Origin: Puniceicoccales bacterium
GTDB lineage: Bacteria; Verrucomicrobiota; Verrucomicrobiia; Opitutales; LL51
Direction: 5' to 3'
NCBI GenBank assembly: GCA_031278845.1
Contig: JAITJQ010000023.1
Location: 1-45,410 of the forward strand
Length of the DNA: 45,410 bases
In this document: one piece after another, positions 3,338 to 34,807 of the stretch
How the letters are laid out: the number at the start of each line of letters is the position of its first letter
Position numbering within the stretch: position 1 is the stretch's first letter
The notes under the pieces: generated by a model
Seen by the model: the letters and a program-made list of their open reading frames with translations, nothing else
The model's database searches: none
What the model was told of the DNA's origin: nothing
Made by a program: the position numbers and the translations under genes

Positions 3338-3620
3338 GCGGCTGACAGTGTCAGCTTCCATACCGCTAGCGCGCGAACGTCAGCAACTGCCGATCCATTG
3401 CTGGCCAAAAGCCAGCTTTTTTGCTGGCGAAGCCAGTTCTATCACTGTCGACTGTGTCGACATCGCAGCCGGCCGTGCCGGCGCTGACAGTGTCAGCTTC
3501 CATACCGCTAGCGCGCGTGCTGAAGCCCTCCGTAGAGTTGGTTTGCCGCCATTGCCGACGAAGTCGGCTCAGTGGGAGTCGACACCGTCAGCCGGCGTTG
3601 ACATATTTAGATTTTGACTT
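3338..3620. repeat. GC-rich mosaic of short hairpin modules (multi-mini-hairpin repeat, locus 1)
   Basis: A chain of short perfect palindromes is present. GCTGACAgTGTCAGC occurs at 3341-3355 and again at 3483-3497, each followed by ttccataccgctagcgcgcg. The others are GCTGGCcaaaaGCCAGC at 3400-3416, CTGGCgaaGCCAG at 3424-3436, GTCGACtgtGTCGAC at 3447-3461, GCCGGCcgtGCCGGC at 3468-3482 and GCCGACgaaGTCGGC at 3554-3568. The modules recur at 4501-4590 (inverted) and 5149-5236 (direct). Confidence 0.85.
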
Positions 3621-5279: not shown

Positions 5280-6815
5280 TTAGGCCTGAGTATTCTGCCA
5301 ATGGGTAGCGATTTCCAGGAGATTTTTTTCGATTGCTTCCGTCAGTTGGTTTTCCTGGATAATTTGTGATAGGACTTGCATACCATTTGTGGCGAAGTAG
5401 GCGAGTAAAGATTCTGCGGCGGCGTTGATATGGTTAAGGGAGGTGGAGTCAAAAATACCTGTTTTGATAGCCCAGAGGAGAAGGACTTGATCGGAGACGC
5501 TTCTGGGGGCATTAGCGGGTTGTCGGAAGAGGGCGACGATACGGGCACCGCGGTCGAGTTGTTGTTGTGTTTTGGGATCTAGATCGGAGCCGAATTGGGC
5601 GAAGGAGCTTAGTTCATAGTATTGACCCAGTTCGAGTTTTAATTTTCCGGCGACCTGTTTAAAGGCTTTAATTTGGGCAGCGGAGCCGACCCGTGATACG
5701 GAAATTCCGATAGAGATTGCGGGGCGTACGCCTCGGTTAAAGAGGTCCGTATCGAGGAAGATTTGGCCATCGGTGATGGAGATGACATTAGTGGGAATAT
5801 AGGCGGAGACGTCACCGGCCTGGGTTTCGATGATCGGTAGGGCGGTGAGGGAGCCGCCGCCACTTTGGGGATTCAGTCGAGCGGCGCGTTCGAGGAGTTT
5901 TGAATGGAGGTAGAAGACATCGCCGGGGTAAGCTTCCCGCCCGGAGGGCCGTTTCAGGATGAGGCAAATTTGGCGGTAAGCGACGGCATGTTTGGAGAGG
6001 TCATCGTAGACGATGAGGGCATCCATACCGTTTTGCATGAACCATTCGCCCATGGCGCAACCGGCGTAGGGGGCGATGTACTGGTTAGCGGGGTTATCGG
6101 CGGCCGAGGAATTGACGATGATAGTAAAGTCCATGGCCCGGTGATCGGAAAGGGTTTTAATGGTACGGGCGATGGTAGAATTTTTTTGTCCGATGGCGAC
6201 GTAGATGGAGTAGACGGGGCGGAAGTCAGGATTATTGGAAGCGAGGCCTTGCCGATTAATTTCGGCCTGATTGATGATGGTATCGATGACGAGGGTAGAT
6301 TTCCCGGTGGCGCGATCGCCGATGATGAGTTCCCGTTGGCCGCGGCCGATGGGGATCATTGCGTCAATGGCGAGGATACCGGTTTGGAGGGGTTGATTGA
6401 CGGATTGGCGGGGCATGATACCGGGAGCAATTTTTTCGATGGGGAAGGATATTTCCGGGGGAATGGGGCCCTTGCCGTCGAGGGGATGGCCGAGGGCATC
6501 GACGACGCGGCCGAGGAGACTTTTACCGACGGGTACGGAGAGTAATTTCCCGGTGGCGGTCGCCTGATCGCCGGATTTGAGGTGGGCGTAATCGCCGAAG
6601 ATGACGACGCCGACGAAATCTTCTTCGAGGTTTAGGGCGACGCCGAAGGTATCATGATCGAAGTCGATCATTTCGTTATACATGACTTCGGAAAGGCCAT
6701 TGAGGAGGGCGACGCCATCGGCGATGGAGACAATGGTTCCGATATTTTTTTTAATGGGTACGGGATTTGAGGAGAAAATCTCCTGACGGATTTGGTCAAG
6801 AAGCGCGTTAGCCAT
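5280..6815 (-). CDS. atpA: F-type ATP synthase subunit alpha
   Basis: The ORF track gives 5280..6872. Homology to alpha subunits starts at the internal Met ([14 protein letters not shown]...), so I place the start at 6815. Diagnostic motifs are [17 protein letters not shown] (Walker A), [71 protein letters not shown] and [11 protein letters not shown]. Confidence 0.9.
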
Positions 6816-7152: not shown

Positions 7153-8973
7153 ATGGATTATAAGATTATAAGTAAAATAATGAGTGGGATGTTTTTGATA
7201 ACGCCACTTGTATCAAATGCCTGGGATAAGGTGATTTATCGTGATGATGTCATTGGGCCAGTGCTCTACACCCAGGAAGATAGTACTGCAATTGATTTGC
7301 AACTACGCGGTGTGCCTGCTGCGTCTGCTGCGTCTGCTGCGCCGTCTGCTGCGCCGCCTGCTGCGCCGCCTGCTGTGCCGCCTGCGTATACTAAGGCTGC
7401 ATATACAGGGATGGGCCTATGCCCTTTGCGGGATGTGCACGACAAAGCGACCATTTTCATTAATGCTGGTGCTAATCCTTTTGCTAGAACAAAAGGAGCG
7501 CATCTGGCAACTAACGATTATTGGCCCTATGAGTTAGTGTCGAACGGGCAAACATATAAATCAGCATCGCGGGCCTTTACTGAGAGATACACTCTTCCAG
7601 GGGTACCGATGTTTGTGCCGGCATATCCTCTTGCTAAGAATTTTTATTGGTATCCCGGGAAGGCCCCTGTTCCTCCTGCTGTTCCTGCTTCAAATTTTAG
7701 CGACTGTGGTCATGATAAGCAGGGTACTGAGGTTTTGAATTTTGGCGGCAATCTGTTGGCCTGCATCTCCATTGATACCCCGCCCCCCCCGGGAACGCCG
7801 CCAAAGCATCGATCGATTATGATTTACCGTTACAATGAAAATAACAGGTGGTTTTTATTCCCTGCGCCTGCGGCGATACAATATTGTGAGCTGAAGGATA
7901 ACAAGAGTGTGGATATTGAAGTTTTTACTAATAATGGTGAAGATTTCGTAGGGGGTCTAAGCGCCAACGATCAATTTAAGTATATAGGAGTTTATAATAA
8001 CAAATCAGGAACCGATAAAAAATTCCCGGCAATGACTGTGGCAGGTGATTCTACTGTTGTTCCTCCTCAGAAAGACCACGCTTTGTCAGCTTATGCAAGC
8101 CAGGGGTGGGCGAAATGCCCTGGAGGGCACTCAATGAGCTCCTACTACGGTCTTCCGGGAATAGCAATCAAGAACACGGATAACAGTAATTTTATTAAAA
8201 ACAAGATAGCGTGCAAGGGTCATGAGTTTATTGTGTATAATTTCTTTTTGAATGAACGATTGACAACTGAATTTCAAAATGCGTTATTTAAAGAGAGAAC
8301 TAATGGTTGCACAGGGATTGACGGTTGCACAGGGATTGACGGTTGCAATACTACAGGGTATGGCGACCTAGCCTCCTTATACGAAAAATTAAGATTGTTA
8401 GTATTGCAAAAAAACGTCTTATGGGGAAAACGCGAGGAGAAAGATCCAGATCGGACCAGTTCCGATTACATCAAAGACAAAGAGAAAAAAGATCAGGATG
8501 TTGGATTTATACGTGATATTCTAGCAGCCATATATGATATAGGTATACAAGAGCAAAAATCACAGATCAATTATTTAAATGGGGTGATTGATGCGACGCT
8601 CCGTCTCGAGCCACATAGACTTTTTGATCCATCATTACCATTGGGAAAAAAATCGGATGGTACTTCTCCGGGTAAAAGTTCTTCGAGTAAAAGTTCTCCG
8701 GATGATAGTTCTTCGGATGATAGTTCTCCGAGTAAAAGTTCTCCGGATAGACCTCCTCCTTTCGCTTCCACGGCCGCTTCGAAGAAAGCTGCTGAGCGAG
8801 AAAGGGCCAGGAAGAGAGAAGCTGCTGAGCTAAAAAGGATCGGGGAGATAGATGGTGAAAAGATACTGAAAAAGCCACTCACTTCCGAGGAACGGAAGGC
8901 AATAGATGAAAGAATAAAGAGGAGCAAGAGGGCAATATCTCGTTTAAATCGTCGCCCTCCCGCCAAGTCGTAA
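7153..8973 (+). CDS. Secreted hypothetical protein with Ala/Pro, GCTGID and Ser/Pro tandem repeats and a basic C-terminal tail
   Basis: The 606-aa ORF follows the RBS-like aaaggaaaaat. The signal-like N-terminus is MSGMFLITPLVSNA. Repeats are AASAASAAPSAAPPAAPPAVPPA, GCTGIDGCTGIDGC and SSSSKSSPDDSSSDDSSPSKSSPD. The C-terminus is Lys/Arg-rich (KKAAERERARKREAAELKR...KRSKRAISRLNRRPPAKS). I recognise no family. Confidence 0.75.
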   Translation: MDYKIISKIMSGMFLITPLVSNAWDKVIYRDDVIGPVLYTQEDSTAIDLQLRGVPAASAASAAPSAAPPAAPPAVPPAYTKAAYTGMGLCPLRDVHDKATIFINAGANPFARTKGAHLATNDYWPYELVSNGQTYKSASRAFTERYTLPGVPMFVPAYPLAKNFYWYPGKAPVPPAVPASNFSDCGHDKQGTEVLNFGGNLLACISIDTPPPPGTPPKHRSIMIYRYNENNRWFLFPAPAAIQYCELKDNKSVDIEVFTNNGEDFVGGLSANDQFKYIGVYNNKSGTDKKFPAMTVAGDSTVVPPQKDHALSAYASQGWAKCPGGHSMSSYYGLPGIAIKNTDNSNFIKNKIACKGHEFIVYNFFLNERLTTEFQNALFKERTNGCTGIDGCTGIDGCNTTGYGDLASLYEKLRLLVLQKNVLWGKREEKDPDRTSSDYIKDKEKKDQDVGFIRDILAAIYDIGIQEQKSQINYLNGVIDATLRLEPHRLFDPSLPLGKKSDGTSPGKSSSSKSSPDDSSSDDSSPSKSSPDRPPPFASTAASKKAAERERARKREAAELKRIGEIDGEKILKKPLTSEERKAIDERIKRSKRAISRLNRRPPAKS

Positions 8974-10346: not shown

Positions 10347-10721
10347 ATGCTCGAGGAAATTGTTAAATCGGTAGTTTTTATTGCCCTACTCGCTTTGGGC
10401 GGATATTTTTTTGTGCTCTTCCGCCGAAAGGGTTGGTTTTTCCCGCAGATGGCTAGTGGTGATCGCTCCAGCCCCGACCACCTCTGCGTAACCGAACGCC
10501 TATCCATTGGGGGACGCCATTACGTTGCCGTTATCCAGTGTAACGGACAGAAGTTTCTCATAGGTGTTTCGCCCAATTCGATCACATCACTCGGTGTATT
10601 GCGCCCATACCGCAGGGAGAATACCAATAGATTCCGCAGTGAAAGTTTTGTCCATTGGGAGAATAATCGGTCGGCGAAGGAGCATGATATTCCGATGCAG
10701 GAGGTGTTGAATCGCCCGTGA
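10347..10721 (+). CDS. FliO-like single-pass membrane protein (tentative)
   Basis: The 124-aa ORF starts 8 nt after the rplS stop. It has one TM helix (VVFIALLALGGYFFVLF). The following LCVTERLSIGGRHYVAVIQCNGQKFLIGVSPNSITSL lines up with the conserved core of E. coli FliO as I recall it (LKISASASLGARERVVVVDVEDARLVLGVTAGQINLL). This is a memory-based assignment and needs an HMM check. Confidence 0.5.
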   Translation: MLEEIVKSVVFIALLALGGYFFVLFRRKGWFFPQMASGDRSSPDHLCVTERLSIGGRHYVAVIQCNGQKFLIGVSPNSITSLGVLRPYRRENTNRFRSESFVHWENNRSAKEHDIPMQEVLNRP

Positions 10722-10733
10722 CGCTGTATCCCT

Positions 10734-11612
10734 ATGGTGTCAATTATCGAACTGCTTGCGGAAGGGGTGAGCTTTCTGTATTCCAACGATATCGAGGGAT
10801 CAAAAAATGACGCGGAATGGCTCTTGGCCCATGTTTTGAATTGTTCGCGGCTGACGTTAAATTTAAATGGACAGACAACGATCAGTAAGGAGTCCGAAAC
10901 GCAGTTTCGAGAGCAATTGCTCCGGCGTGCTCGACGGGAACCGTTACAATATATTTTGGGCAAAGTCGATTTCCACGATATAAAATTAAAGGTCGATGCC
11001 CGCGTTTTCATTCCACGCGGAGAAACGGAAATACTTGTCGAATGGCTGATCAATCATATCAATAAATGCATGGGGAATACCTTTTCCGATGGGGAAAATT
11101 TTCCGTCCCTGAATATTCTGGACCTGGGAACGGGAAGTGGTGCGATCGCGATTGCCTTAGCGAAACGTTTCCCGAAGAGTTGCGTATTTGCCGTCGATCG
11201 ATCACCACTGGCGCTAGAGGTTACCCGCGAAAATATGCGGCGTAATGGCGTAAATAACTTGCAACTCTTCACATCGAATTGGTACAGCGCTTTCGAAGGC
11301 GATCAGGAACTGTTCGACATCATCGTTTCCAATCCTCCCTATTTGACGCGCCAGGAGTTTGATACGGCCCAGGACGAAGTGCGTCGCTATGAACCCGTTT
11401 CGGCACTCGTTGCCGAAGAAGAGGGTCTTCGAGATATCAGAATAATTCTCGATGGAGCCCAAAGATTTCTCAAAAAAGATGGTGTTGCCGCCGTTGAAAC
11501 GGGTATTTTACATCCCCAACGACTCCAAAAGATATATGGAAAACGTTTTAGGCAAACGGAAATTTTAAAGGACTTGAATCAGTTTGATCGTTTTTTTATC
11601 GCCTACCGTTGA
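10734..11612 (+). CDS. prmC: Release-factor glutamine N5-methyltransferase
   Basis: The 292-aa ORF has EPLQYILGKVDF, the SAM-binding motif ILDLGTGSGAIA and the catalytic motif VSNPPY. Confidence 0.9.
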   Translation: MVSIIELLAEGVSFLYSNDIEGSKNDAEWLLAHVLNCSRLTLNLNGQTTISKESETQFREQLLRRARREPLQYILGKVDFHDIKLKVDARVFIPRGETEILVEWLINHINKCMGNTFSDGENFPSLNILDLGTGSGAIAIALAKRFPKSCVFAVDRSPLALEVTRENMRRNGVNNLQLFTSNWYSAFEGDQELFDIIVSNPPYLTRQEFDTAQDEVRRYEPVSALVAEEEGLRDIRIILDGAQRFLKKDGVAAVETGILHPQRLQKIYGKRFRQTEILKDLNQFDRFFIAYR

Positions 11613-11668
11613 AGTTTAAGGGCTTGCTATTTGCTAAATTTTGAATAAAAGGACAACGGCTAGAGAGT

Positions 11669-11938
11669 ATGGATCAGAATTTTATTATTAGTATCACGGA
11701 GCAGGCAATGATACTCATTCTCATGCTATCGATGCCGCCGATTTTAGTGGCGACCTGTGTAGGACTAATAACGAGTTTGTTACAGGCTCTCACGCAGATT
11801 CAGGAACAAACGCTGGGGTTTGCTATCAAATTATTCTTTACCGTTACGGTTTTGATGCTATCGGCGTACTGGATCGGAGATGAGTTACTTGCATTTGCCA
11901 ATAGTTTATTTACTAATTTCCCAACAATTATTCACTAA
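11669..11938 (+). CDS. sctS: Type III secretion export apparatus protein SctS (YscS/FliQ family)
   Basis: The 89-aa ORF has two TM segments. LSMPPILVATCVGLITSLLQALTQIQEQTLGFAIKL closely matches the YscS-type signature QALTQIQEQTL. It matches less well to flagellar FliQ (QAATQINEMTL), both as recalled. Confidence 0.9.
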   Translation: MDQNFIISITEQAMILILMLSMPPILVATCVGLITSLLQALTQIQEQTLGFAIKLFFTVTVLMLSAYWIGDELLAFANSLFTNFPTIIH

Positions 11939-12726
11939 TGGAAACGGGATTAGAGCAGGTAACATCGATTTTATTCTTAATGATGATGTGTATCATCCGT
12001 TTAGCGGCGGCGTTATCATTGACGCCGGTATTCGCTAAACAATACATCATGGGGACAGGGCGTAACGTTGTGATTTTCGCCATGGCCTTACCTCTTTTCC
12101 ACGTCGTGTATCCGACCCTACCGACGACACAACTTCCGCTGCTCATTCTTTTTGTAACGATTTGTAAGGAGGTTATTATTGGTGCGATGTTGGGTTATTT
12201 ATCGGGATTTATTTTTTATGTTACGGATAGTGTTGGGTTTATTATTGACATTCAGCGTGGATCGTCGCAGGCCATGACATTTGATCCCATTGCTGGTTCT
12301 CAGACGTCGCTTTTGGGTAGTTTTTTGACCCAGATGATTGCGACGCTATTTTTTACGATGGGGGGTTTTTTATTTTTTCTCGGCGTGATTTATAAGACCT
12401 ATGTTGTCTGGCCTGTTTTTACGTTTTTTCCCTCCTTCAACGTCAATTTTCCAGCATTTATGATGTCATTTGCGGATGAGATTATGGAGGCAGTTTTTTG
12501 TTTTTCGGCGCCGATTTTAATCGTATTATTTCTTGCGGAGTTTGGGTTAGGGATGATCAGCCGTTTTGCGCCGCAACTAAATGTATTTTTTATGGCGATG
12601 CCGGTTAAGAGTTGGCTATCGGTGTTTTTTTTACTATTTTATTTTTCTCTGCTGGGGAAATTATTTCACTACCATTTTTTCACGCAGAGTAAATTATCAT
12701 TTTTCGTTGATCATTTTCTGAAATAG
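11938..12726 (+). CDS. sctT: Type III secretion export apparatus protein SctT (YscT/FliR family)
   Basis: The 262-aa ORF is a polytopic membrane protein. Its ATG overlaps the sctS stop (TAATG). Its position between sctS and sctU and its size fit the SctT/FliR family. Confidence 0.8.
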   Translation: METGLEQVTSILFLMMMCIIRLAAALSLTPVFAKQYIMGTGRNVVIFAMALPLFHVVYPTLPTTQLPLLILFVTICKEVIIGAMLGYLSGFIFYVTDSVGFIIDIQRGSSQAMTFDPIAGSQTSLLGSFLTQMIATLFFTMGGFLFFLGVIYKTYVVWPVFTFFPSFNVNFPAFMMSFADEIMEAVFCFSAPILIVLFLAEFGLGMISRFAPQLNVFFMAMPVKSWLSVFFLLFYFSLLGKLFHYHFFTQSKLSFFVDHFLK

Positions 12727-12755
12727 AGGTAATAGGGAGAGGAAGGGATAGCTAA

Positions 12756-13835
12756 ATGAGTGAGAAGACCGAGGAACCGACACCGAAGCGTATACGCGAT
12801 GCGCGCAACAAGGGAAATATTGCTAAGAGTCAGGACGTCAATTCGACGCTTACCCTAATCGGTGCCTTTTGCTATGTTGGGCTAGGCTGGAACCAGCATT
12901 TAGATAATATTTCGGAGATGATTTTAATTCCGACTCAATTTATTGGGCGGTGTAAAGATTTAAGTGGTTATACGGGGCAGGCACTTTGGAGTGTTTTGGT
13001 GAAGACGGGTAATATTGTTTTCCCGGCGATTTTCGTCGTTGCGCTGATGGGGATCATTGGAAATTTTGCGCAGGTGGGGATTTTATTTACGACGAAAACG
13101 ATACAACCTGATCTCAATAAAATCAATCCCATGTCGAAGGCGCAGCAGATGTTTTCCATGAAAACCATCGTCGAGCTACTGAAATCGACGGTAAAAATTC
13201 TTTTTTTAGGTTTTCTATTGATTGGTGTTGTAAAAGATGTATTTGACGATTTAATTTTGCTACCGTTTTGTAAGCTATCGGGTGTATTGAGCATCCTCGG
13301 TCCTATTATGACTAATTTTGCAAAGATGGTCATTTTCGCGTATATTGCGATGGCGGCTCTCGATTACTCCTATCAGAAATATAAGTGGAAAGAGGGGCTC
13401 AAAATGAGTAAGGATGAGGTCAAGCGGGAGTATAAGGAATCCGAGGGTGACGGGCAAATTAAGAGTAAGCGCAAGCAAATTCACAAGGAAATGATGGAAG
13501 AGGATCCGCAGCAGAAAACGAAGCAGTCTTCGGCCCTAGTAACCAATCCGGAGCACATTGCGATTGCGTTGCTTTACGATTTCGAGCGTCCTGTTTTTCC
13601 GTTACCGATCGTAACTGCGAAGGGGGTAGGTATCATTGCGGAGCAGATGATAGCGGTTGCGAAAAAGGAAGGGATACCGATTATGCGCAATGTACCTTTA
13701 GCGCACGCGTTATTGGATACGGCAAATGTTATGGAGTACATTCCCACGGAGTTAATGGCGCCGGTTGCGGAAGTTTTACGTTGGGTTAAGGACATGAAGG
13801 ACGAGCAAGCCCGAGGGAATGCGGCGTTTGTCTGA
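12756..13835 (+). CDS. sctU: Type III secretion substrate-specificity switch protein SctU (YscU/FlhB family)
   Basis: The 359-aa ORF has the N-terminus MSEKTEEPTPKRIRDARNKGNIAKSQDV and four TM segments. It also has KMSKDEVKREYKESEGDGQIKSKRKQIHKEM, the autocleavage-site position reading NPEH, and PLAHALL...APVAEVLRWV. It is collinear with YscU as I recall it. Confidence 0.9.
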   Translation: MSEKTEEPTPKRIRDARNKGNIAKSQDVNSTLTLIGAFCYVGLGWNQHLDNISEMILIPTQFIGRCKDLSGYTGQALWSVLVKTGNIVFPAIFVVALMGIIGNFAQVGILFTTKTIQPDLNKINPMSKAQQMFSMKTIVELLKSTVKILFLGFLLIGVVKDVFDDLILLPFCKLSGVLSILGPIMTNFAKMVIFAYIAMAALDYSYQKYKWKEGLKMSKDEVKREYKESEGDGQIKSKRKQIHKEMMEEDPQQKTKQSSALVTNPEHIAIALLYDFERPVFPLPIVTAKGVGIIAEQMIAVAKKEGIPIMRNVPLAHALLDTANVMEYIPTELMAPVAEVLRWVKDMKDEQARGNAAFV

Positions 13836-13846
13836 ATAGATGTGAG

Positions 13847-13960
13847 AGGAGTATGCTTTGGGGTTCTTACTCGGACGCTCTATGGTACTCTCTGTTGCAT
13901 CTATAATGAGCGATTCTAGCCCATCTGGTTTAACCCAGTTCTCTTGGGGAGCTTCATACC
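13847..13960 (-). pseudogene. Short DDE-transposase-derived fragment (IS5/DDE_Tnp_4-like), copy 1
   Basis: The reverse strand reads APQENWVKPDGLESLIIDATESTIERPSKNPKAY, resembling the IDATE..I.RP region of DDE_Tnp_4 transposases as I recall them. About 105 nt are nearly identical to 34632-34735. There is no start codon and no intact ORF. Confidence 0.45.
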
Positions 13961-14098
13961 CGGAGAGAGGATAGGCTCAACTTCCCCACGAGAAAACAAC
14001 CACCAAGCATATGTTAGAGCTCTAGAACTATTCAGACGATACCGATCACACCTATTTAGATAGTAAAATTTAAACCTGAATAATTAGATAAAAAAGCG

Positions 14099-14126
14099 AA
14101 AGCACTTCCCGAAAGAGGTGCTTTTT
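14099..14126 (+). terminator. Rho-independent terminator module at the start of the ankyrin array unit
   Basis: AAAGCACTTC ccgaaa GAGGTGCTTT is followed by TTT. The same module follows ankyrin paralogs A and B (15354, 17041). Confidence 0.55.
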
Positions 14127-14212
14127 GGCTCTACAATTTACATGTCGCTTCACTTTCTGAAAAATTCCTCGAAAATAATTTTGAGTTCAATAAATGTTAT
14201 ATTAATATAATA

Positions 14213-14240
14213 TTGACAGCCTAGAAGCTTCACCTAATAT
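14213..14240 (+). promoter_or_regulatory. Sigma70-like promoter of ankyrin paralog A
   Basis: TTGACA (14213-14218), a 16-nt spacer and TAATAT (14235-14240) lie about 50 nt upstream of the start codon. Confidence 0.55.
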
Positions 14241-14291
14241 TATGTAAATATTTAACGCCTGTTACGTTAGATACAAAAAGAAAGGTTTAAT

Positions 14292-15320
14292 GTGAATAAA
14301 AGTTATAATATAAAAAATAAATTCCTGAAAAATATTGTACTCGGGAGCTTCCTATTTAGCAGTTTCGCGGGTACCTCTTCTCAACTCCAGGCCGCTCCTA
14401 TCCACGGTAGGGCAGCCCGAGGAGATGTTGTAGGGATACAACAATTGCTTAATGGGGGTGCTAATCCAAACCAAAGAGACGAGCATGGACAGACACCACT
14501 ACATTTCGCAAATACCCCAGATGTAATTGATATCCTGTGCGACTGGGGCGCCGATCCCAACGTAGCCAATAACTTTGGTTATACACCATTGCATTACAAA
14601 GTACGTGTCCTATTTGAGCCACACCTAAATGACCTAACACGCCCACAAAATAACAAAAGAAAAATACAATCACTGTTATCATGTATTAAACAATTACTAA
14701 GAAGAGGCGCCGATAAAAAGAAAATAAACAATGCAGGCTATTCCCCTGAATCAATTGTAGAGCAAGCATTTCAAACCAATGTGTTTTATGATGGCAATAC
14801 CCGTTATAATGTAAGCAGTAATGCGCTCCAAGCATGCATCGAAATCCGAGGATTATTCCCTAAATCGATTTATGATGCGGTGGCCGATAACGACATAATA
14901 GAAGCAAGACAGCTACTTGCTGCGGGTGTAGATCCCAATGGAATAAATCGGTTCGGATATGCACCACTGCATTACGCAACAACCCCAGAGATGGTTGAAC
15001 TATTGTGCAACGCAGGAGCCAATATCAATGGCCCCGATCAATGGGGCAACACTCCATTACATAGTGCTGTAGCCATCATCAATCCAAATTTAGAACTCAT
15101 AAGAAAATTATTGCAAAAAGGTGCTAGAATAGACATACCAAACCAACAAGGCGAAACTCCATTGTCAAAAGTAAAACGGACAATTCAAACTGGTGTAGTT
15201 ACCTATAGCCGATCTCATTTGGGCCTAATTACCATAGGGGAAGACGTCGCACCCCAAACATTTATTAGGGTTCAAGACTTATTCTGCTCATTCTCCCCAT
15301 CCCGATATAATATACAATAA
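14292..15320 (+). CDS. Ankyrin-repeat protein, family paralog A (two modules), Sec-type leader
   Basis: The 342-aa ORF has a GTG start after aaagaaaggtttaat. The leader is MNKSYNIKNKFLKNIVLGSFLFSSFAGTSSQLQA/AP. ANK units include GQTPLHFANTPDVIDILCDWGADPN and GYAPLHYATTPEMVELLCNAGANIN. Confidence 0.85.
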   Translation: MNKSYNIKNKFLKNIVLGSFLFSSFAGTSSQLQAAPIHGRAARGDVVGIQQLLNGGANPNQRDEHGQTPLHFANTPDVIDILCDWGADPNVANNFGYTPLHYKVRVLFEPHLNDLTRPQNNKRKIQSLLSCIKQLLRRGADKKKINNAGYSPESIVEQAFQTNVFYDGNTRYNVSSNALQACIEIRGLFPKSIYDAVADNDIIEARQLLAAGVDPNGINRFGYAPLHYATTPEMVELLCNAGANINGPDQWGNTPLHSAVAIINPNLELIRKLLQKGARIDIPNQQGETPLSKVKRTIQTGVVTYSRSHLGLITIGEDVAPQTFIRVQDLFCSFSPSRYNIQ

Positions 15321-15353
15321 AAATTACACTTAAATAATTAAATAAAACAAGCA

Positions 15354-15381
15354 AAAGCACTTCCAGGGAGAGGTGCTTTTT
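15354..15381 (+). terminator. Rho-independent terminator after paralog A
   Basis: AAAGCACTTC caggga GAGGTGCTTT is followed by TT. Confidence 0.6.
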
Positions 15382-15467
15382 GGCTCTACAATTTACATAT
15401 CGCTTCACTTTCTGAAAAATTCCTCGAAAATAATTTTGAGTTCAATAAATGTTATATTAATATAATA

Positions 15468-15495
15468 TTGACAGTCTAGAAACTTCACCTAATAT
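15468..15495 (+). promoter_or_regulatory. Sigma70-like promoter of ankyrin paralog B
   Basis: TTGACA (15468-15473), a 16-nt spacer and TAATAT (15490-15495). This is a near-identical copy of 14213-14240. Confidence 0.55.
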
Positions 15496-15546
15496 TATGT
15501 AAGTATTTAACGCATGTTGCGTTAGATACAAAAAGAAAGGTTTAAT

Positions 15547-17004
15547 ATGAATAAAAGTTATAATATAAAAAATAAATTCCTGAAAAATATTGTACTCGGG
15601 AGCTTCCTATTTGGCAGTTTCGCGGGTACCTCTTCTCAACTCCAGGCCGCTCCTATCCACAGTAGGGCAGCCCGAGGAGATGTTGTAGGGATACAACAAT
15701 TGCTTAGTGGGGGTGCTAATCCAAACCAAAAAGACAATTTGGAACAGACACCACTACATTTCGCAAGTACCCCAGGTGTAATTGATATCCTGTACACCTG
15801 GGGCGCCGATCCCAACGCAGCCAATAATTTTGGTGATACACCATTGCATTGCAAAGTACGTACCCTATTGGCAACAAACCTACAAGGTAACGAAAAAAAA
15901 ATACAATCACTGTTATCATGTATTAAACAATTACTACAAATAGGCGCCGATAAAAAGAAAATAAACAATGCAGGCTATTCCCCTGAATCAATTGTAGAAC
16001 AAGCATTTCAAACCAATGTGTTTTATGATGGCAATATCCGTCGTGATATAAGCAGTGATGCACGCCAAGCATGCATCGAAATCCGAGGATTATTTTCCCC
16101 ATTACAGGCCAAATCGATTTATGATGCGGTAGCCGATAACGACATAGAAGGAGTGCGTCGGTTACTTGATGCGGGTGTAGATCCCAATAAAATACATGAT
16201 CGATTCGGATGTGCACCACTGCATATCGTACAAACCCCAGAGATGGTTGAACTACTGTGCGGCAGAGGAGCCAATATCAATGGCCCCGATCAATGGGGTA
16301 ACACTCCATTGCTTTGTGCCCTATCTTTCGGCAGTCCGAATTTAAAACTCATAGAAAAATTATTACAAAAAGGCGCTAGAATAGATATACTAAACCAACG
16401 AGGTCAAACCCCAGTTTCGCTAGTACAACAAGCAATCGACAAACGTATAGTTAGCGGTGGTCGGCCTAGTGATGCCTCAATTTCTTTAAACGAAAACGAA
16501 CACAAAACATACATTACAGTCAAACAACTATTATTTTCTCAAAATCGGACTAGATCACTCCATAATGTGATGCTCGATGATAACATAATAGAAGCAAGAC
16601 AGCTACTTGCTGCGGGTGTAGATCCCAATGGGATGGATCAGTTCGGAGGTACACCACTGCAGTATGCAACAACCCAGGAGATGATTGAACTATTGTGCAA
16701 CGCAGGAGCCAAGATCAACGGCCCCGATCAATGGGGCAACACTCCATTACATAGTGCTGTGACCATCAATCCAGATTTAGAACTCATAAGAAAATTATTG
16801 CAAAAAGGTGCTAGAATAGACATACCAAACCAACAAGGCGAAACTCCATTGTCAAAAGTAAGACAGGCAATTCAAGTTGGTATAGTTAGCGGTGGCCGAC
16901 CTCATTCGCCCTCAAATGCCATACAGGAAGACGCCGTACGCCAAACATTTATTGGGGTTCAAGACTTATTCCGCTCATTCTACCCATCCCAATGTAATAT
17001 ATAA
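15547..17004 (+). CDS. Ankyrin-repeat protein, family paralog B (three modules), Sec-type leader
   Basis: The 485-aa ORF differs from paralog A at only about 4 positions over the first ~185 nt by manual comparison. Its last module is also near-identical to the last module of A. An extra central module is present. Confidence 0.85.
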   Translation: MNKSYNIKNKFLKNIVLGSFLFGSFAGTSSQLQAAPIHSRAARGDVVGIQQLLSGGANPNQKDNLEQTPLHFASTPGVIDILYTWGADPNAANNFGDTPLHCKVRTLLATNLQGNEKKIQSLLSCIKQLLQIGADKKKINNAGYSPESIVEQAFQTNVFYDGNIRRDISSDARQACIEIRGLFSPLQAKSIYDAVADNDIEGVRRLLDAGVDPNKIHDRFGCAPLHIVQTPEMVELLCGRGANINGPDQWGNTPLLCALSFGSPNLKLIEKLLQKGARIDILNQRGQTPVSLVQQAIDKRIVSGGRPSDASISLNENEHKTYITVKQLLFSQNRTRSLHNVMLDDNIIEARQLLAAGVDPNGMDQFGGTPLQYATTQEMIELLCNAGAKINGPDQWGNTPLHSAVTINPDLELIRKLLQKGARIDIPNQQGETPLSKVRQAIQVGIVSGGRPHSPSNAIQEDAVRQTFIGVQDLFRSFYPSQCNI

Positions 17005-17040
17005 TAAAAATTACACTTAAATAATTAAATAAAACAAGCA

Positions 17041-17068
17041 AAAGCACTTCCAGGGAGAGGTGCTTTTT
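17041..17068 (+). terminator. Rho-independent terminator after paralog B
   Basis: AAAGCACTTC caggga GAGGTGCTTT is followed by TT. Confidence 0.6.
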
Positions 17069-17157
17069 GGCTCTACAATTTACATGTCGCTTTATTTTCT
17101 GAAAAATTCTCGAAAATCATTTCCGATCTCAGTAAATATATCGCAAATACAATAGAA

Positions 17158-17553
17158 GTGCTTCGGTTACTTGATACGGGTGCAAATCCCAATGCAATGG
17201 ATCGGTGCGGATATACACCATTGCATGCTGCGAATACCCCTGAAATCGTTGATCTGTTACTCAATACCGAAGCCGATATCAATCATCCTAACCAATTGGG
17301 CGATACTCCATTACGCATCGCCGTAGCCGATCGCCATCCGAAATTAGAATGCATAAAAGCATTATTGCGACAAGGCGCCGACAAAGATATACAGGATGCA
17401 AAAGGCAAAACCTCCTTAGAAGCGGTACAGGACGCAATTGAATTTGGTGTCGTTGACAGCAGTCGCTCTACCTCAACAAAAATAGATAACAACGCACGCA
17501 AAGTATACGCTGAAGTCCTGGAACTATTCTTCTTTCCCAAACATCTCTGGTAA
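17158..17553 (+). pseudogene. 5-prime-truncated ankyrin paralog C (lacks promoter, RBS and leader)
   Basis: The 131-aa ORF from a GTG is homologous to residues ~47-180 of paralog D (LLDTGANPNAMDRCGYTPLHAANTPEIVDLL...YAEVLELFFFPKHLW). The upstream intergenic module stops at ...cgcaaatacaa and joins directly to mid-ANK sequence. The equivalent point before paralog D (...caccaatacaa) continues into the promoter and leader. Confidence 0.6.
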
Positions 17554-17775
17554 AAATAAAAGCACAATAGCAGGAAAAAGGCAAAAGCACTCCCCCGAGA
17601 AAGTGCCTTCCGACTCCACAATTTACACATCACTCCATCCCCTGAAAATTTCTCAAAAATAATTTCGGACCTCTGTAAATATATCACCAATACAACATTG
17701 GCAATCTAGCTATTTTACTTAGCATTATGCAATATTTAACACGCATCGCGTTAAATATACGAAGAAAGGTTTAAC

Positions 17776-18318
17776 ATGAATAAAAGTTATAACATAAAAA
17801 ATAAATTCCTGAAAAATATTGCACTCGGGAGCTTCCTATTTAGCGGTTTCGCGGGTACATTCTCCCAACTTCAAGCCGGCCCGCTCCATGGTGCGGTAAC
17901 AAATGAAGACATAGATGAAGTGTATCGATTACTTGAAGCAGGTGAAGACCCTAACGCAATAGATAATCGGTTTGGATATACTCCATTGCATCTTGCAAAC
18001 ACCCCTGAAATGGTTAATTTGTTGTGCAGCAAAGGAGCTCATATCAACAACTCTGGTCGATGGGGCAGTACGCCACTACGTGAAGCCGTATCCGCCTACT
18101 ATCCGAATTTAGAACTCATAAAAGCACTATTGCGACAAGGCGCTAACAAAGACATATCGGATGTAAGAGGTAAAAACTCCGTAACCGCCGTACGGGACGC
18201 AATCGAATTGGGTATAATTCAAGGCAACCACTATGCCACTGTATTAAAAATAGATGACGATTCGCGCCTAGCATACGCTGAAGTCCTAAAACTATTTTTC
18301 CTCCCCCAATGTCTCTGA
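17776..18318 (+). CDS. Ankyrin-repeat protein, family paralog D (one module), Sec-type leader
   Basis: The 180-aa ORF has the leader MNKSYNIKNKFLKNIALGSFLFSGFAGTFSQLQA. ANK units include GYTPLHLANTPEMVNLLCSKGAHIN. The C-terminus is YAEVLKLFFLPQCL. Confidence 0.85.
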   Translation: MNKSYNIKNKFLKNIALGSFLFSGFAGTFSQLQAGPLHGAVTNEDIDEVYRLLEAGEDPNAIDNRFGYTPLHLANTPEMVNLLCSKGAHINNSGRWGSTPLREAVSAYYPNLELIKALLRQGANKDISDVRGKNSVTAVRDAIELGIIQGNHYATVLKIDDDSRLAYAEVLKLFFLPQCL

Positions 18319-18395
18319 TAAAAACTGAACCCCAACCATTAAGATAAACCAAAGCAAAGCTCTCTCTAAGAAGGTTTCTTTGGACTCTATAATTT

Positions 18396-18720
18396 ACGCG
18401 AATGGCGAAATGAAATGGCCTGAATAAAAGGGAAAATGGCTTAGGAGGATTAAATGAAAATCATTCCCCCAAGCCTGATTAGATTATCTGTTGAAGGGGA
18501 TGACCTTTGCAAGGAGAAAAAGAGGGTACCATTAAGAAGACCAAGAAAAAAGTAAGTTGTCTATAAGTGAAATGGTAACTATTTATGTTTGGTTTTTAAG
18601 ATCGAAAGGGAAGGATTTTAAGACGTTTTATGAAGGATGCCAGGGACAGTTTTTGAGGGAATAACTCGCCTCACGTCTTCCTCTGTCCATCTTAGTATAC
18701 CCTCTCTCCCTCCTGGTATA
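18396..18720 (+). mobile_element. IS982-family insertion sequence remnant (5-prime part only; right boundary approximate)
   Basis: acgcgaatggcgaaatgaaatgg...attaaatgaaaatcattcccccaagcctgattagatta is shared with 34808-34890. The translation, with frameshifts, gives GDDLCKEKKRVPLRRPRKK / LSISEMVTIYVWFLRSKGKDFKTFYEGC. This resembles the IS982 transposase N-terminus as I recall it. It interrupts the array intergenic module at ...ctctataatttacgcg. Confidence 0.5.
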
Positions 18721-18851
18721 CCATCTATCCATGTTGGTACAACAAAGCCTGGCACAGCAGCCATGCTTGAAGTTATGGCACCCGGAAAGTGTCCCAATAG
18801 GAAACCGCCCACTGTTAGATGTTTTAATATTTTTGTTTTTCTAATATTCAT
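18618..18851 (-). pseudogene. Leader-only remnant of a fifth member of the leader family, inverted orientation
   Basis: The 77-aa ORF MNIRKTKILKHLTVGGFLLGHFPGAITSSMA... has a leader DNA that parallels the family leader (ggcggtttcctattgggacactttccgggtgcc versus gggagcttcctatttagcagtttcgcgggtacc). The remainder of the ORF reads through the IS remnant on the opposite strand. Confidence 0.3.
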
Positions 18852-18961
18852 TTTTTCCTTTTTTTTATTGTTATTATTGTCAATTTGTTTTACTGCTTTA
18901 AATAAAACAGGCTTTATATTAATGTTTTTTTAAGAACGCAAGGGGTTTTTGTGGAAAAATA

Positions 18962-20272
18962 TTAATATTTCTTTTGAGTCCGATTTTCTTTGAGAGCTTG
19001 CCATTCGCGAAGGCGTTCCGCTAGAACTTTCTCGGCACCGATTGACTTCGGCTCATAGAATTTTTTCGGCGTCAACATATATTCCTGGCCCGAGATGTTC
19101 CGTTCGAAATCGTGGCTGTATTGGTAATATTTCCCGTGCTGTAATTTTTGGGCGGCCGCACCATGCGCGTCGCGTAACCATATCGGTACCGCTTCTTTCC
19201 CATGTTTTTTTATGTAAGCTGTTGCAGCCTCAAGTGCTAGGTAGGTCGAATTGCTCTTCGGCGCTAGCGCACAAAATACCGTCGTGTGCGCTAAACTTAA
19301 ACGACATTCCGGCATGCCTAGTCGTTCACAGGCGTCAAAGCACGCGTCGGCAATTAATATCGTCCGAGAATCCGCTAAACCAATGTCCTCCGATGCAATA
19401 ATTAGGAGCCGCCGTGCAATGAATCGCGGGTCCTCTCCGCCTTCTAACATCACCGCTAACCAGTAAATTGCTGCGTCCGGATCACATCCGCGAATGCTTT
19501 TTATGTACGCCGAAATCGTGTTGTAGTGCTCATCCTCATCGGTATCGTAGGTCAGTTGCTGCTTAAATAGAAATTTTCCCGCCTCCTCGATGGTAACGGA
19601 TGTTCCCAAAGGCGTATTGAGCACGATCGATTCCAAAACATTGAGCGCCTTCCGCGAATCACCATTGCACTGCTCAGCAATCAGGATCAATGCATCCATG
19701 TCTAGCGTGCAATTCATTGCTCCTAATCCGCGCTCCTTGTCTTCAAGGGCGTTTTTCAGAATAGTAATAATCGCTTCGTTGGACAACGGCTCCAGTTCGA
19801 TCAGTCGGCAGCGGCTGAGTAGGGGATTGATGACATAAAATCCCGGGTTATGCGTGGTCGCACCGATCAGCTGAATCGTTCCCGCTTCCACATCGGGGAG
19901 TAAAAGGTCCTGCTGCGATTTGTTGAAACGGTGGATTTCGTCGATAAATAAAATGGTGCGCGACGACGGATTGCGTTGGGCTGACCGTAGGATCTCACGG
20001 AGTTCGGTGACGTTCGATAAAACGGCATTAACTTTCATGAATTGACGTTTTTCTTCGTTGGCGATGGCTTCGGCAATGGATGTTTTCCCACTTCCCGGTG
20101 GACCGTATAAAATGAGACTCCCCAACGATTGGTTGCGTACGAGATCGATAAATGGCGATCGTATGAGCGCATCTTGTCCTATAATTTCATCGAGGTTACG
20201 CGGCCGCATGCGTACAGCTAGTGGCCCCGATCCCATACGGCAGGTTTCAAAAAATTCTGTCATCGGAATCAT
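18962..20272 (-). CDS. rarA: Replication-associated recombination protein A (AAA+ ATPase, MgsA/RarA)
   Basis: The 436-aa ORF has Walker A GPPGSGKTS, Walker B ILFIDEIHRFNKSQQD, and the MgsA C-terminal region YDEHYNTISAYIKSIRGCDPDAAIYWLA. Confidence 0.9.
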   Translation of the reverse strand: MIPMTEFFETCRMGSGPLAVRMRPRNLDEIIGQDALIRSPFIDLVRNQSLGSLILYGPPGSGKTSIAEAIANEEKRQFMKVNAVLSNVTELREILRSAQRNPSSRTILFIDEIHRFNKSQQDLLLPDVEAGTIQLIGATTHNPGFYVINPLLSRCRLIELEPLSNEAIITILKNALEDKERGLGAMNCTLDMDALILIAEQCNGDSRKALNVLESIVLNTPLGTSVTIEEAGKFLFKQQLTYDTDEDEHYNTISAYIKSIRGCDPDAAIYWLAVMLEGGEDPRFIARRLLIIASEDIGLADSRTILIADACFDACERLGMPECRLSLAHTTVFCALAPKSNSTYLALEAATAYIKKHGKEAVPIWLRDAHGAAAQKLQHGKYYQYSHDFERNISGQEYMLTPKKFYEPKSIGAEKVLAERLREWQALKENRTQKKY

Positions 20273-25613: not shown

Positions 25614-27701
25614 ATGAAAAAGTCGGTCAGTATACTAGTAATGGCATGCGCAGCGGCATGGAGTTGGGGAACGGCACCGAGTCGTATCCCTTTAATATCG
25701 GGGGACGAATCATCCTATGATACGCCATCATTTCAAATGTGGGGTGAAACTCCTTTAGTTTTCAAGGATGGGCGTGGATTTCATGTGGCGCCGTGGTTTA
25801 AGGCGATTCAACCCGATTTGTTACATTTAATTAAACGCAGTTATGTCCTTACGAAACGGGAACATAACGGCAAATTTCGCAATGAACATCGCATGTTATC
25901 GGACAGTTCGGCATTTTATGTTCCGGAGACCGGACACCAATGGATTTGTGATCGCAACTTTACCGGTATCCATGGAAAGCTGAAGGAGAGTTCGCGTATC
26001 GGAGGGGTATTGAATGTCGCATTTGAAGCGGTTACGCTTGGGAAATTTGCTCCGGAAATTGATTTTCCTGGATACGTTGCAGCTTTGCAAACTGGACCAT
26101 ACCACGTTATTGCCATCGTATTGAGAGGAAGTCAGGGGGAAGATTTTCAACCGGGATCGGGACTACTCAGTGCGAGTTGGGCAACGAATTACGATGCGGG
26201 ACCGTTCGAAGTCAATCCGGAGTTATACGGATTTAGCGGAAGAATGCATGGTGGTTACCTAACAAAAATAAATTCCTGTAATCTGCCTCAGGAAGAATTT
26301 GAACAAATGGTTGACGATCGTGAGATTAGTAATCCTTTACAATCGAGAGCAGATCTCGATTTCATTTATCCACTTTTTGAAAGTGTTCGGCGTGTCATTG
26401 AACAGATTCCAGATGATGAACGGGACCGTATACGTTTCGTTGTAACGGGCCACAGCCAGGGGGGAGGGTTAGCGCAGGTCGCTTTACCGCTCATGATCAG
26501 TCAATTTGGAGGAGCGATTCCCGGATTTGGCAATAATACGGAAACGCCACGATTTTTTGGATATTTCCTATCGGCTCCACGCGTTGCCGCCGATCAAGGG
26601 ACCGTCGATAGTTACAATGCGTTGGTTGGGCATGACAATATGATTAATCATTTTGCTTTCCGTGACGTCGTTACGATGGCTTGTCTGCACGGGTACAAAA
26701 CGTTAGGCCATTTGGCATGTGATTCGGCGAGGGATGTACTACATCGCGGGATTTGTTCAGAAGTTGCCCATAATAATCGCATGCTTTTGCTCAGTTTTAT
26801 TCAGGCGTGCATCGATGCTAGTGCTTTTGATACGGGCGATAATCAGCATTGGTTTTTGGAGGAGAATCCGGAGTTGATCATTTGTTGGGATGAAATTAAG
26901 CATCTTTTATCGTACCAGCAATTCACCTATGAGCGGATCAATCCGGATGGAATTACAGACCTATGTAACTTTGCACTCGACCAATATCGGCAAAGATATG
27001 CCATTGATGGAGATTTACATTTTACCGTAGATCAAATTCCGTTTACGAGATATTGCAATTGGGAAGAAATTCAGAGGATTTGTCGCGGCGACTTATTTCC
27101 CAACGAAATCCGACTCAATGAAGCAACCTGTGCCATACTTGATCGGGTTGTTGAGAACATCTATGGCAGGACGGCTATATTTTCAGCGGATGGAAGGTTT
27201 AATGTTAGTGCCCTAATCGATACGGTATTTGATTTATTAGATGCTGGGCGCGGTAGCGATAATCCTGGGGGATGCTTGGAGTGTCTAAAGCGTTGTTTCT
27301 GCTGTTGTTGTTCGCTCTTTGGTCGTTCCGATGTCCAAGCTACCTTTGATTTTGATCCGGAGTTCCAAGCATTACTGGAATCCAATGGCATTAATCCCTC
27401 CGACCTGGGAATAATTAAATTGGGAGGTAGTTCACTGATCGCCTACTTACATTTCGGTTCAGGGGCCAATGGTTTTAATGCGAAATTGTTCGATAAGTTT
27501 TTACCGTCAAGGAATCTAGAATTTGCCCTAAGGAATGGCGAAATTGTTACTACCCAACGGAATCCAGTATTGCGTTCGGAAATAAAGGAGATATCGCCTA
27601 TTATAGATGAATCCCATGAAGAATATTCCGATGGAGAAGTTTCGGCCCATCGTCCACCGAGTGTCATTTTTAGAATGAAAAAGTCAAAGTCAGCGACATA
27701 G
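25614..27701 (+). CDS. Secreted class-3 lipase-like alpha/beta hydrolase with a long C-terminal extension
   Basis: The 695-aa ORF has the signal-like leader MKKSVSILVMACAAAWSWG and the nucleophile elbow VTGHSQGGGLAQ. An upstream IAIVLRGSQG strand is typical of Lipase_3. The C-terminal ~330 aa have no family I recognise and contain CLECLKRCFCCCCSLF. Confidence 0.7.
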   Translation: MKKSVSILVMACAAAWSWGTAPSRIPLISGDESSYDTPSFQMWGETPLVFKDGRGFHVAPWFKAIQPDLLHLIKRSYVLTKREHNGKFRNEHRMLSDSSAFYVPETGHQWICDRNFTGIHGKLKESSRIGGVLNVAFEAVTLGKFAPEIDFPGYVAALQTGPYHVIAIVLRGSQGEDFQPGSGLLSASWATNYDAGPFEVNPELYGFSGRMHGGYLTKINSCNLPQEEFEQMVDDREISNPLQSRADLDFIYPLFESVRRVIEQIPDDERDRIRFVVTGHSQGGGLAQVALPLMISQFGGAIPGFGNNTETPRFFGYFLSAPRVAADQGTVDSYNALVGHDNMINHFAFRDVVTMACLHGYKTLGHLACDSARDVLHRGICSEVAHNNRMLLLSFIQACIDASAFDTGDNQHWFLEENPELIICWDEIKHLLSYQQFTYERINPDGITDLCNFALDQYRQRYAIDGDLHFTVDQIPFTRYCNWEEIQRICRGDLFPNEIRLNEATCAILDRVVENIYGRTAIFSADGRFNVSALIDTVFDLLDAGRGSDNPGGCLECLKRCFCCCCSLFGRSDVQATFDFDPEFQALLESNGINPSDLGIIKLGGSSLIAYLHFGSGANGFNAKLFDKFLPSRNLEFALRNGEIVTTQRNPVLRSEIKEISPIIDESHEEYSDGEVSAHRPPSVIFRMKKSKSAT

Positions 27702-34735: not shown

Positions 34736-34807
34736 GTAACCTGATACTCTACGCTGCACAATTTTTATCAGAGTTCGAGGCAATTTACTTCCTTTGCAAT
34801 AGGTTTA

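Follow-up and report, generated by a model that had tools for sequence, protein, structure and literature searches.

Signal-peptide-bearing ankyrin-repeat (ANK) proteins of sponge symbionts lower phagocytosis (Nguyen, Liu & Thomas 2014, cited in PMC6372511), as does ANKp, a signal-peptide ANK protein encoded by the phage Ankyphage (10.1101/608950); as these sources present them, the phagocytes were amoebae or macrophages (10.1101/608950; PMC6372511). In Wolbachia, ANK genes grow and shrink through repeated sequences, recombine intragenically and vary among closely related strains (Siozios et al. 2013, PMC3563639). Here we describe a tandem ANK array in a 45,410-nt stretch of DNA from an uncultured Puniceicoccales (Verrucomicrobiota) bacterium (GCA_031278845.1, contig JAITJQ010000023.1; ‘the window’ is this whole stretch). 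The array occupies window positions 13986–18390 and comprises four open reading frames (ORFs), A, B, C and D, all on the same strand, together with the relic of the tail of a fifth gene; it lies between sctU (12756–13835) on the left and a RarA/MgsA gene on the opposite strand (18962–20272) on the right. We propose that the array encodes released, host-directed, Sec-exported ANK binders under diversifying selection, which are not substrates of a type III secretion system (T3SS), and we regard this statement, taken whole, as on balance probable. On the sequence, Sec almost certainly exports these proteins, which are ANK protein-binding modules under diversifying selection, and our confidence in the anatomy and evolution of the array is higher than in the whole statement.

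All four ORFs passed the Pfam gathering cutoffs for Ank (52–110 bits; cutoff 21.1) and Ank_2 (46–113 bits; cutoff 27.3). Self-comparison divided A into a leader and two modules (A1 and A2), B into a leader and three modules (B1, B2 and B3) and D into a leader and one module, with C consisting of a single module without its first ~20 residues and without everything upstream. This agrees with a first-pass annotation of the same DNA, which had given B one module more than A, and had described D as a one-module gene and C as a truncated one-module copy. That annotation had also built every gene from 1, 2 or 3 copies of one ~150-aa module; the copy numbers stand, but there are two old module types, type I (A1 and B1) and type II (A2, B2, B3, C and D), with 30–35% identity between types. 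The type I module always comes directly after the leader, and its third repeat carries a 12–18-residue insertion. The last modules of A and B are less alike than the ‘almost identical’ of the earlier description, as A2 and B3 share 87% nucleotide and 71% amino-acid identity and only the last 300 nt reach 90%.

C shares 62% identity with the final module of the two-module protein P0005, and its counterpart in a sister strain, L001, is 93% identical in amino acids, with the 131-codon frame open in both strains; C is probably a pseudogene or a silent copy. The relic comprises the last ~25 codons of a type II tail (…ENNHQAYVRALELFRRYRSHLFR, then a stop codon) just upstream of the first terminator, resembles the tails of D and C (...ARLAYAEVLKLF) and was found in L001 too; no ORF lies upstream of the relic at 13986–14063. 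A conserved motif at the extreme C-terminus, LF[FL]LP[QP]xLW, closes the terminal type II modules of D, C and most family members, and in internal modules its place directly after LF is taken by a linker. The motif may have a role in cap packing or as a sorting signal.

AlphaFold2, run on eight family sequences, gave a model of A (mean predicted local distance difference test (pLDDT) score 82) with two ANK clusters of stacked helix pairs joined by beta-turn loops. Each module has four helix pairs: an N-cap, two canonical repeats, the first of which is two residues short (TPE in place of xxGH), and a fourth pair carrying an insertion, a ~20-residue beta-hairpin between its two helices, where model confidence was low (pLDDT 55–59). 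A Foldseek search with the whole model gave DARPin–DARPin rigid fusions and tankyrase ankyrin repeat clusters (ARCs) as best matches, with a probability of 1.0 to DARPins and ankyrin-R/B. A profile of the C-terminal half of the module, built from 16 modules and searched against the PDB, matched ANK repeats, including DARPin repeats and C-caps, over its first ~25 positions, and found no PDB match over the hairpin and last helix. On the model and this profile, the half of the module previously taken for a non-ANK segment consists largely of a fourth, degenerate ANK repeat, C-cap-like and with an inserted beta-hairpin.

The leader has an n-region (MNKSYNIKNKFLKN) of net charge +4, an h-region (IVLGSFLFSSFAG) with an 11-residue hydrophobic window of Kyte–Doolittle (KD) value 1.8–2.0, and a c-region, TSSQLQA/A (the slash marks the putative cleavage site), with Ala at -1 and Leu at -3; it contains no lipobox Cys and no twin-arginine. 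Judged by these rules rather than by SignalP, it has the features expected of a classic Sec/signal peptidase I (SPase I) signal peptide. The suggestion that the leader is Sec-like rather than a type III signal is thus borne out by the charged n-region, the hydrophobic core and the LQA/A site. We infer cleavage at LQA/A and export beyond the periplasm; SecA is encoded in the window, at 42500–45355.

When the 45 N-terminal residues of D were searched with phmmer against 1.84 billion representatives, 18 proteins were retrieved, of which ~17 carry the leader. The 11 newly retrieved leader proteins (125–353 aa) were all of the ANK-module kind by eye, some with low-complexity spacers between leader and module. 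Across the ~17 clusters the leader is near-invariant, which makes it a marker of the family; conservation of the mature protein is lower, down to 38–54% identity. Searching proteins by word index with the 41-aa leader yielded just one match, a decayed ORF of 56 aa, and the metagenome contigs compared with the family alignment gave, among the matches listed, only three unrelated ANK loci. Some Logan contigs of the sequencing run X1 match A or B at window positions 14646 and 15734 and then run into unrelated sequence; these loose ends suggest that the genome or community contains further paralogues with leader or module segments in common.

The point at which a module was lost can be seen within A2. 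Of the informative sites of this module between 14862 and 14893, 13 agree with B2 and one with B3; from about 14898 the module follows B3. Silent divergence (dS) between B2 and B3 is 0.57, and between A2 and B3 it is 0.09–0.11. Because the B2–B3 split is old (dS 0.57) and the A2–B3 split young (0.09), A2 is a chimera with a sharp crossover and must come from a gene already in possession of both modules. We read A as the deletion product of a three-module, B-like gene, in which unequal crossover between modules 2 and 3 removed exactly one 441-nt module.

Strain L001 differs from the window by a whole gene, even though its SctT and SctU are 100% and 99% identical (dS 0.02–0.03). Its array consists of the relic, B′ (484 aa, three modules), C and D; gene A is absent. 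This arrangement is backed by run X2, in which a 1744-nt contig runs from B′ into C and a 1255-nt contig from sctU to B′, both at 1x depth. The expectation that copy number differs between related strains therefore holds, with L001 having B, C and D without A. B3 is closer to its L001 counterpart (dS 0.05) than to A2 (dS 0.09–0.11), which places the A/B duplication before the strain split and implies that A was lost in L001.

Other exchanges have left shorter traces. The tract of B from promoter through leader and module 1 to the start of module 2 is 65–85% identical to L001 (dS 0.35), compared with 93–100% for its surroundings (dS 0.02–0.06), and marks a recombination import from a divergent paralogue or allele. 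B3 contains a 14-nt patch identical to B2, at which A2 and L001 B3 agree with each other, and this patch is a small intragenic conversion. C and the relic are a record of truncation and of near-complete loss. The inter-module linkers (LFSQ[VF][RQ][AT]KSLH) resemble the leader c-region plus mature start (FSQLQA[GD]P[LI]H), suggesting that neighbouring genes, fused in frame from tail to leader, gave rise to the multi-module genes.

The proposal that unequal recombination or gene conversion alters module number is upheld by the loss of one module from A and by the lack of A in L001, but the near-identical ends of A and B do not call for conversion. Gene conversion was considered as the source of the conserved A/B 5′ end and rejected, as upstream unit, leader and module 1 all show the same silent divergence of ~5%. 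Because the dS of A1 and B1 (0.05) equals the non-coding divergence of 5%, the pattern of identical ends with a different middle can be put down to excess replacement together with constraint on promoter and leader. The ends are also less similar than had been counted by hand: the regulatory unit and first ~185 coding nt of A and B, credited with about 4 differences, have 16 (11/202 and 5/185 nt).

We used Nei–Gojobori counts to compare the proportions of nonsynonymous and synonymous change (pN/pS) among modules. The ratio was 1.98 for A1–B1 and 2.19 for A2–B3 after the junction (paralogues), and 1.54 for B2 and 2.61 for B3 between the window and L001 (orthologues). Controls gave 0.53 for C (on 14 changes only), 0.52 for D, 0.21 for SctU and 0 for SctT. 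In one-sided Fisher tests on pooled counts, p was 0.0099 (paralogues) and 0.0097 (orthologues). These counts are evidence of diversifying selection, with amino-acid change in the mature modules of A and B running at ~2x the silent rate. Replacement hot spots were the N-cap, the loop before the first TPLH (the first beta-turn) and the hairpin, at 0.36–0.49 replacements per site per pair, compared with 0.05–0.14 in the module centre.

The genes to the left of the array encode export-gate components of a type III injectisome. SctU scored 371 bits (NCBIfam cutoff 358) and SctT 206 bits (cutoff 163), with the flagellar counterparts FlhB (295, below 349) and FliR (118, below 169) falling short, and a flagellar identity, raised by a FliO-like match, was ruled out on these cutoffs. 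The export-gate order at 10347–13835 is a FliO-like ORF, a PrmC methyltransferase, a gap long enough for sctS, then sctT and sctU; there is no sctR or sctV near these genes, and the order is conserved in the related contigs L002–L006. Relatives keep the upstream genes (Mur ligase, FabH, AtpA, TrmD, FliO-like, PrmC, sctT and sctU), but not what follows. After sctU, L002 has a 460-aa unknown protein, MarC, a flavoprotein and GyrA; no ANK modules were found after sctU in the available sequence of L002, L003 and L006, and the L004 contig ends ~0.9 kb past sctU. The relatives compared at sctU have 82–92% SctU identity, and related arrays in L007 and L008 adjoin a gene for a metallo-beta-lactamase fold (Lactamase_B). 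Because relatives differ at this site, the position after sctU is best seen as a lineage-specific accident at a synteny break, and supplies no type III evidence. Location after sctU had been offered as a hint of a host-directed role, which an adjacency not kept at 82–92% SctU identity does not sustain.

The relatives of SctU that were found come solely from Puniceicoccales metagenome-assembled genomes, and the runs that contain the stretch are termite-gut metagenomes. The verrucomicrobial ‘Nucleococcus cluster’ consists of endosymbionts of termite-gut protists (PMC8204192). On the related contig L008 the ANK array is present as a decayed copy; the contig also has an IpgD-family gene and, in tandem, three genes with Myb domains (1–912, 13692–15714). 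IpgD represents a family of phosphoinositide phosphatase effectors and, with the Myb genes, makes up the eukaryote-like or effector-like features of L008; the IpgD and Myb genes fit a eukaryote-associated lifestyle. The window itself encodes a CesT-family type III chaperone (30989–31486), 12 kb from the array.

Two alternatives concern the array as a piece of DNA. It might be an assembly artefact, either a longer repeat that has collapsed or strain alleles of A and B stitched in tandem, given that the source is a short-read metagenome assembly, that the units share exact runs of 75–87 nt and that the Logan contigs are fragmented across A and B, none being shown to bridge the A–B junction. We consider this very improbable. 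In the X1 Logan contigs, word depth was 26–29 over sctU and C–D, 19–26 over A- or B-specific segments (about flank level) and 42–52 over segments shared by A and B (about twice that), a pattern indicating two single-copy genes in one genome, as alleles would give 0.5x each and a collapse >1x throughout. No exact run shared by the A and B units exceeds 87 nt, which is less than a read length, and upstream of B an ‘after-gene’ terminator variant (CCAGGGAG) is joined to a complete promoter unit, which fits a true tandem junction and nothing else. The structure in the sister strain is confirmed by the independent 1744-nt contig. Read depth, which the first-pass annotation had named as a check on a collapsed or mis-assembled repeat, thus speaks against an artefact, with 1x in unique and 2x in shared parts. 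The other alternative, the least probable of all those weighed here, is programmed variation, in which promoterless C (and the relic) would be silent donor cassettes copied into the expressed genes. The frame of C is open in both strains without promoter or leader, B3 has its 14-nt B2-like patch, and a divergent 5′ tract has been imported between strains, all of which such a system could leave. However, there is one silent copy only, and no tract of A, B or D can be traced to C; no recombinase or guide sequence was seen, nor any within-sample junction variants in the contigs, and the pN/pS of 0.5 for C, on 14 changes, is uninformative.

The remaining alternatives concern where the proteins act. 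Injection as type III effectors by the machine encoded beside them at sctU has only a very slight chance of being right: the array is immediately downstream of bona fide sctT and sctU, and the CesT-family chaperone is 12 kb off, but the N-terminus is a Sec signal with a 13-residue hydrophobic core and an AxA-type site, and the array proteins have no recognizable T3S-type N-terminal signal and no adjacent chaperone gene. Each gene moreover has its own promoter, a terminator separates the array from sctU, and the adjacency to sctU is not conserved (in L002, L003 and L006, or in L007 and L008, where the arrays lie beside Lactamase_B). The main rival, unlikely though not remotely so, is that these are resident periplasmic ANK proteins with bacterial targets, an immunity or inhibitor array against periplasm-acting toxins or hydrolases, in an arms race with competitors. 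A Sec signal alone gives a periplasmic location, and tandem, fast-diverging paralogues with pN/pS >1 would also fit immunity arrays. Periplasmic ANK proteins do exist, among them the self-protection protein Bd3460 of Bdellovibrio and AnkB of Pseudomonas. Yet no toxin, type VI secretion system (T6SS), contact-dependent inhibition (CDI) or hydrolase gene adjoins the array here or in L001, L007 or L008, PADLOC gives generic ANK similarity only, a multi-module, multivalent architecture is atypical of immunity proteins, and the genome setting (T3SS, CesT, IpgD and Myb) is oriented towards eukaryotes.

On the favoured reading of released, host-directed binders, the leader would take the proteins across the inner membrane by Sec, and a type II system, vesicles or lysis are candidate routes for release from the cell. 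Each mature protein would be one to three self-contained ankyrin clusters, each with an N-cap, two canonical repeats and a C-cap repeat with its beta-hairpin insertion. Outside the cell their targets would be the proteins of a eukaryotic partner, most likely a flagellate of the gut, with module number setting valency and the variable surfaces setting specificity. The array itself evolves by birth and death, through duplication (A/B), loss of one module (A), 5′ truncation (C) and near-total deletion (the relic), and in addition through import of divergent 5′ tracts between strains and copying of small patches between modules.

Several points weigh against this reading. In a diderm a Sec signal means delivery to the periplasm only, and no outer-membrane export route was identified here. 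That the target lies in a eukaryotic host is an even call, and the association of the array organism with protists is deduced from gene content and source. No RNA-seq runs containing the stretch were found. The pN/pS tests rest on about 170 substitutions, and the paralogue and orthologue tests share the B lineage; the hot regions have a pN/pS of 2.6 (p = 0.001), with the division into hot and core regions chosen after the data had been seen. Variability of the hairpin may partly stem from relaxed constraint, as this region has a pLDDT of 55–59.

A more specific version, which we put forward as a speculation and think decidedly doubtful, is that the array is a multivalent secreted ‘binder set’ of a protist-associated, possibly intranuclear or intracellular verrucomicrobium of the Nucleococcus type, with a Sec-dependent, T3SS-independent route to the host, in which in-frame fusion of tandem genes creates new valencies, crossover reverses this and selection retunes the surfaces. 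If true, fusion would convert gene number into module number and unequal crossover module number into gene number, and positive selection would retune the N-cap, beta-turn and hairpin surfaces against host targets. The locus offers a clean, dated case of a symbiont tuning a secreted binder family in which the unit of gain and loss is a four-repeat ANK cluster; the crossover can be placed to within a few bases, and a whole gene separates two strains whose SctU is 99% identical. It indicates that termite-gut Verrucomicrobiota, for which functional data are almost lacking, have a Sec-dependent ANK family, whose near-invariant leader gives a handle for finding all its members.

A repeated intergenic unit precedes A, B and D and consists of a hairpin, a conserved ACAATTTACA…GAAAATAATTT stretch, the promoter, a palindrome in the 5′ untranslated region (UTR), a GAAAGG Shine–Dalgarno (SD) sequence and then the start codon (Table 1). 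The palindrome, which as RNA would form a 5′-terminal hairpin, is TTAACGCA-TGT-TGCGTTAA and starts at about the predicted +1. The same unit stands ahead of family members in three other contigs, the palindrome shows compensatory changes across loci, and the A promoter is conserved in the units of L001, L007 and L008. The palindrome could be an mRNA-stabilising 5′ stem-loop or an operator, and the data favour neither. An Rfam scan of 13500–19000 gave two chance-level matches only, and the intergenic unit and 5′ UTR are therefore not a known RNA family. Each intact gene appears to be its own transcription unit, with a sigma-70 promoter, a UTR hairpin, a strong SD and usually an intrinsic terminator. 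The terminator hairpin attributed to every unit is present in good form three times (about -15 kcal/mol, with a U-tract) and is degenerate after C and after D. In C, a deletion that begins shortly before the -35 box and ends midway through the N-cap has taken out promoter, 5′ UTR, SD and leader; the ‘four units’ of hairpin, regulatory module and ANK gene thus hold as four consecutive ANK ORFs, but only three units are complete. A starts with GTG, where B and D have ATG, and its 5′-UTR hairpin is weaker than that of B (-7 versus -14.4 kcal/mol). Expression of A may lie below that of B.

Table 1. Features of the ANK array, in window coordinates.
Feature	Position	Strand	Size or folding energy	Details
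Relic of fifth gene	13986..14063	+		Type II module 3′ tail (PRENNHQAYVRALELFRRYRSHLFR, stop); repeat family D11 and frame-0 translation
Intrinsic terminator upstream of A	14095..14130	+	-15.6 kcal/mol, z -3.4	Hairpin and U-tract
Promoter of A	14213..14240	+		Sigma-70 type, TTGACA-16-TAATAT; 10/12 consensus matches
5′ UTR of A	14247..14291	+	-7 kcal/mol	Palindrome/hairpin weakened by two changes; GAAAGG SD
Gene A	14292..15320	+	342 aa	GTG start
A, signal peptide	14292–14393	+		
A, type I module	14394–14861	+		
A, type II module	14862–15317	+		Chimeric
A, crossover tract	14862..14897	+		Informative sites and repeat family D6
Terminator after A	15350..15385	+	-15.2 kcal/mol	
Promoter of B	15468..15495	+		TTGACA-16-TAATAT
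5′ UTR of B	15502..15546	+	-14.4 kcal/mol, z -5.5	12-bp hairpin (GUAUUUAACGCA UGU UGCGUUAGAUAC) and SD
Gene B	15547..17004	+	485 aa	ATG start
B, signal peptide	15547–15648	+		
B1	15649–16092	+		
B2	16093–16539	+		
B3	16540–17001	+		
Terminator after B	17037..17072	+	-15.2 kcal/mol	
C	17158..17553	+	131-aa ORF	From GTG; 5′-truncated type II module
Hairpin after C	17580..17612	+	-10.2 kcal/mol, z -1.6	Degenerate, without U-tract
Promoter of D	17698..17725	+		TTGGCA-16-TAGCAT; 9/12 consensus matches
Gene D	17776..18318	+	180 aa	ATG start
D, signal peptide	17776–17877	+		
D, type II module	17878–18315	+		One module
Right array edge	18349..18397	+		Degenerate last hairpin copy and unit end (...ATAATTTAC)

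Other features of the window were seen alongside the array. A ~95-nt element with an internal hairpin (GGCTTAGGAGGA…TCCCCCAAGCC) occurs at 18393–18487 and 34805–34899 (93% identity), and in L001 at 5741–6014. Its word depth is ~10–30x that of its flanks (286 versus 28 in X1, 296 versus 9 in X2), making it a multi-copy short repeat; it abuts the right edge of the array, which is also a synteny break, and has no Rfam match. A second, unrelated ankyrin protein of 285 aa (3569–4426, minus strand) has a Sec-like leader of its own (MKNINIKNTIKYVAMSSCLLSISHLEGA/A), and its gene is absent from the otherwise syntenic L002, which makes it another lineage-specific predicted exported ANK gene. Two large ORFs (7153–8973, 606 aa; 25614–27701, 695 aa) have N-terminal signal-like sequences and no or weak Pfam matches, the 606-aa ORF having a Pro/Ala-rich stretch and only 32–35% identity in relatives; both are possible further secreted proteins.

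Set against known systems, the array contains nothing conceptually new, as ANK expansion and contraction and signal-peptide ANK proteins are both documented elsewhere; what is new is the lineage. In architecture it resembles tankyrase ARCs and DARPin–DARPin fusions, which likewise string several autonomous ANK binding units of 4–5 repeats along one chain like beads, but tankyrase is eukaryotic and the DARPin fusions are synthetic, and the likeness is purely architectural. The Dot/Icm Ank effectors of Legionella and Coxiella share with the array ANK repeats and a eukaryote-associated bacterium, but have C-terminal type IV secretion system (T4SS) signals and no Sec leader, whereas the array proteins have a Sec leader; against the NCBIfam families T4SS_AnkH/G/Y they score 30–67 bits, with cutoffs of 500–600 (D, 34 versus 600), and are not members. 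The closest evolutionary precedent is the Wolbachia ANK families, which like the array change size through repeats and recombination and differ between strains. Those changes involve mostly single 33-aa repeats, are often phage-linked and occur in cytoplasmic proteins that lack Sec signals, whereas here the unit is a whole four-repeat cluster or gene, in a verrucomicrobium, with no phage genes nearby. The closest functional precedents are the sponge-symbiont ankyrin-repeat proteins (ARPs) and ANKp. Like the array proteins, these are described as small ANK proteins that carry a Sec signal at the N-terminus and lack a transmembrane domain. They belong to bacteria living with phagocytic eukaryotes and act outside the producer, whereas the array is known from sequence alone, and the ANK repeat is the only sequence relationship between them. 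Unlike those proteins, the members of the array stand in tandem, share a near-invariant leader and a regulatory unit, and are built from one to three multi-repeat modules, each with a beta-hairpin C-cap.

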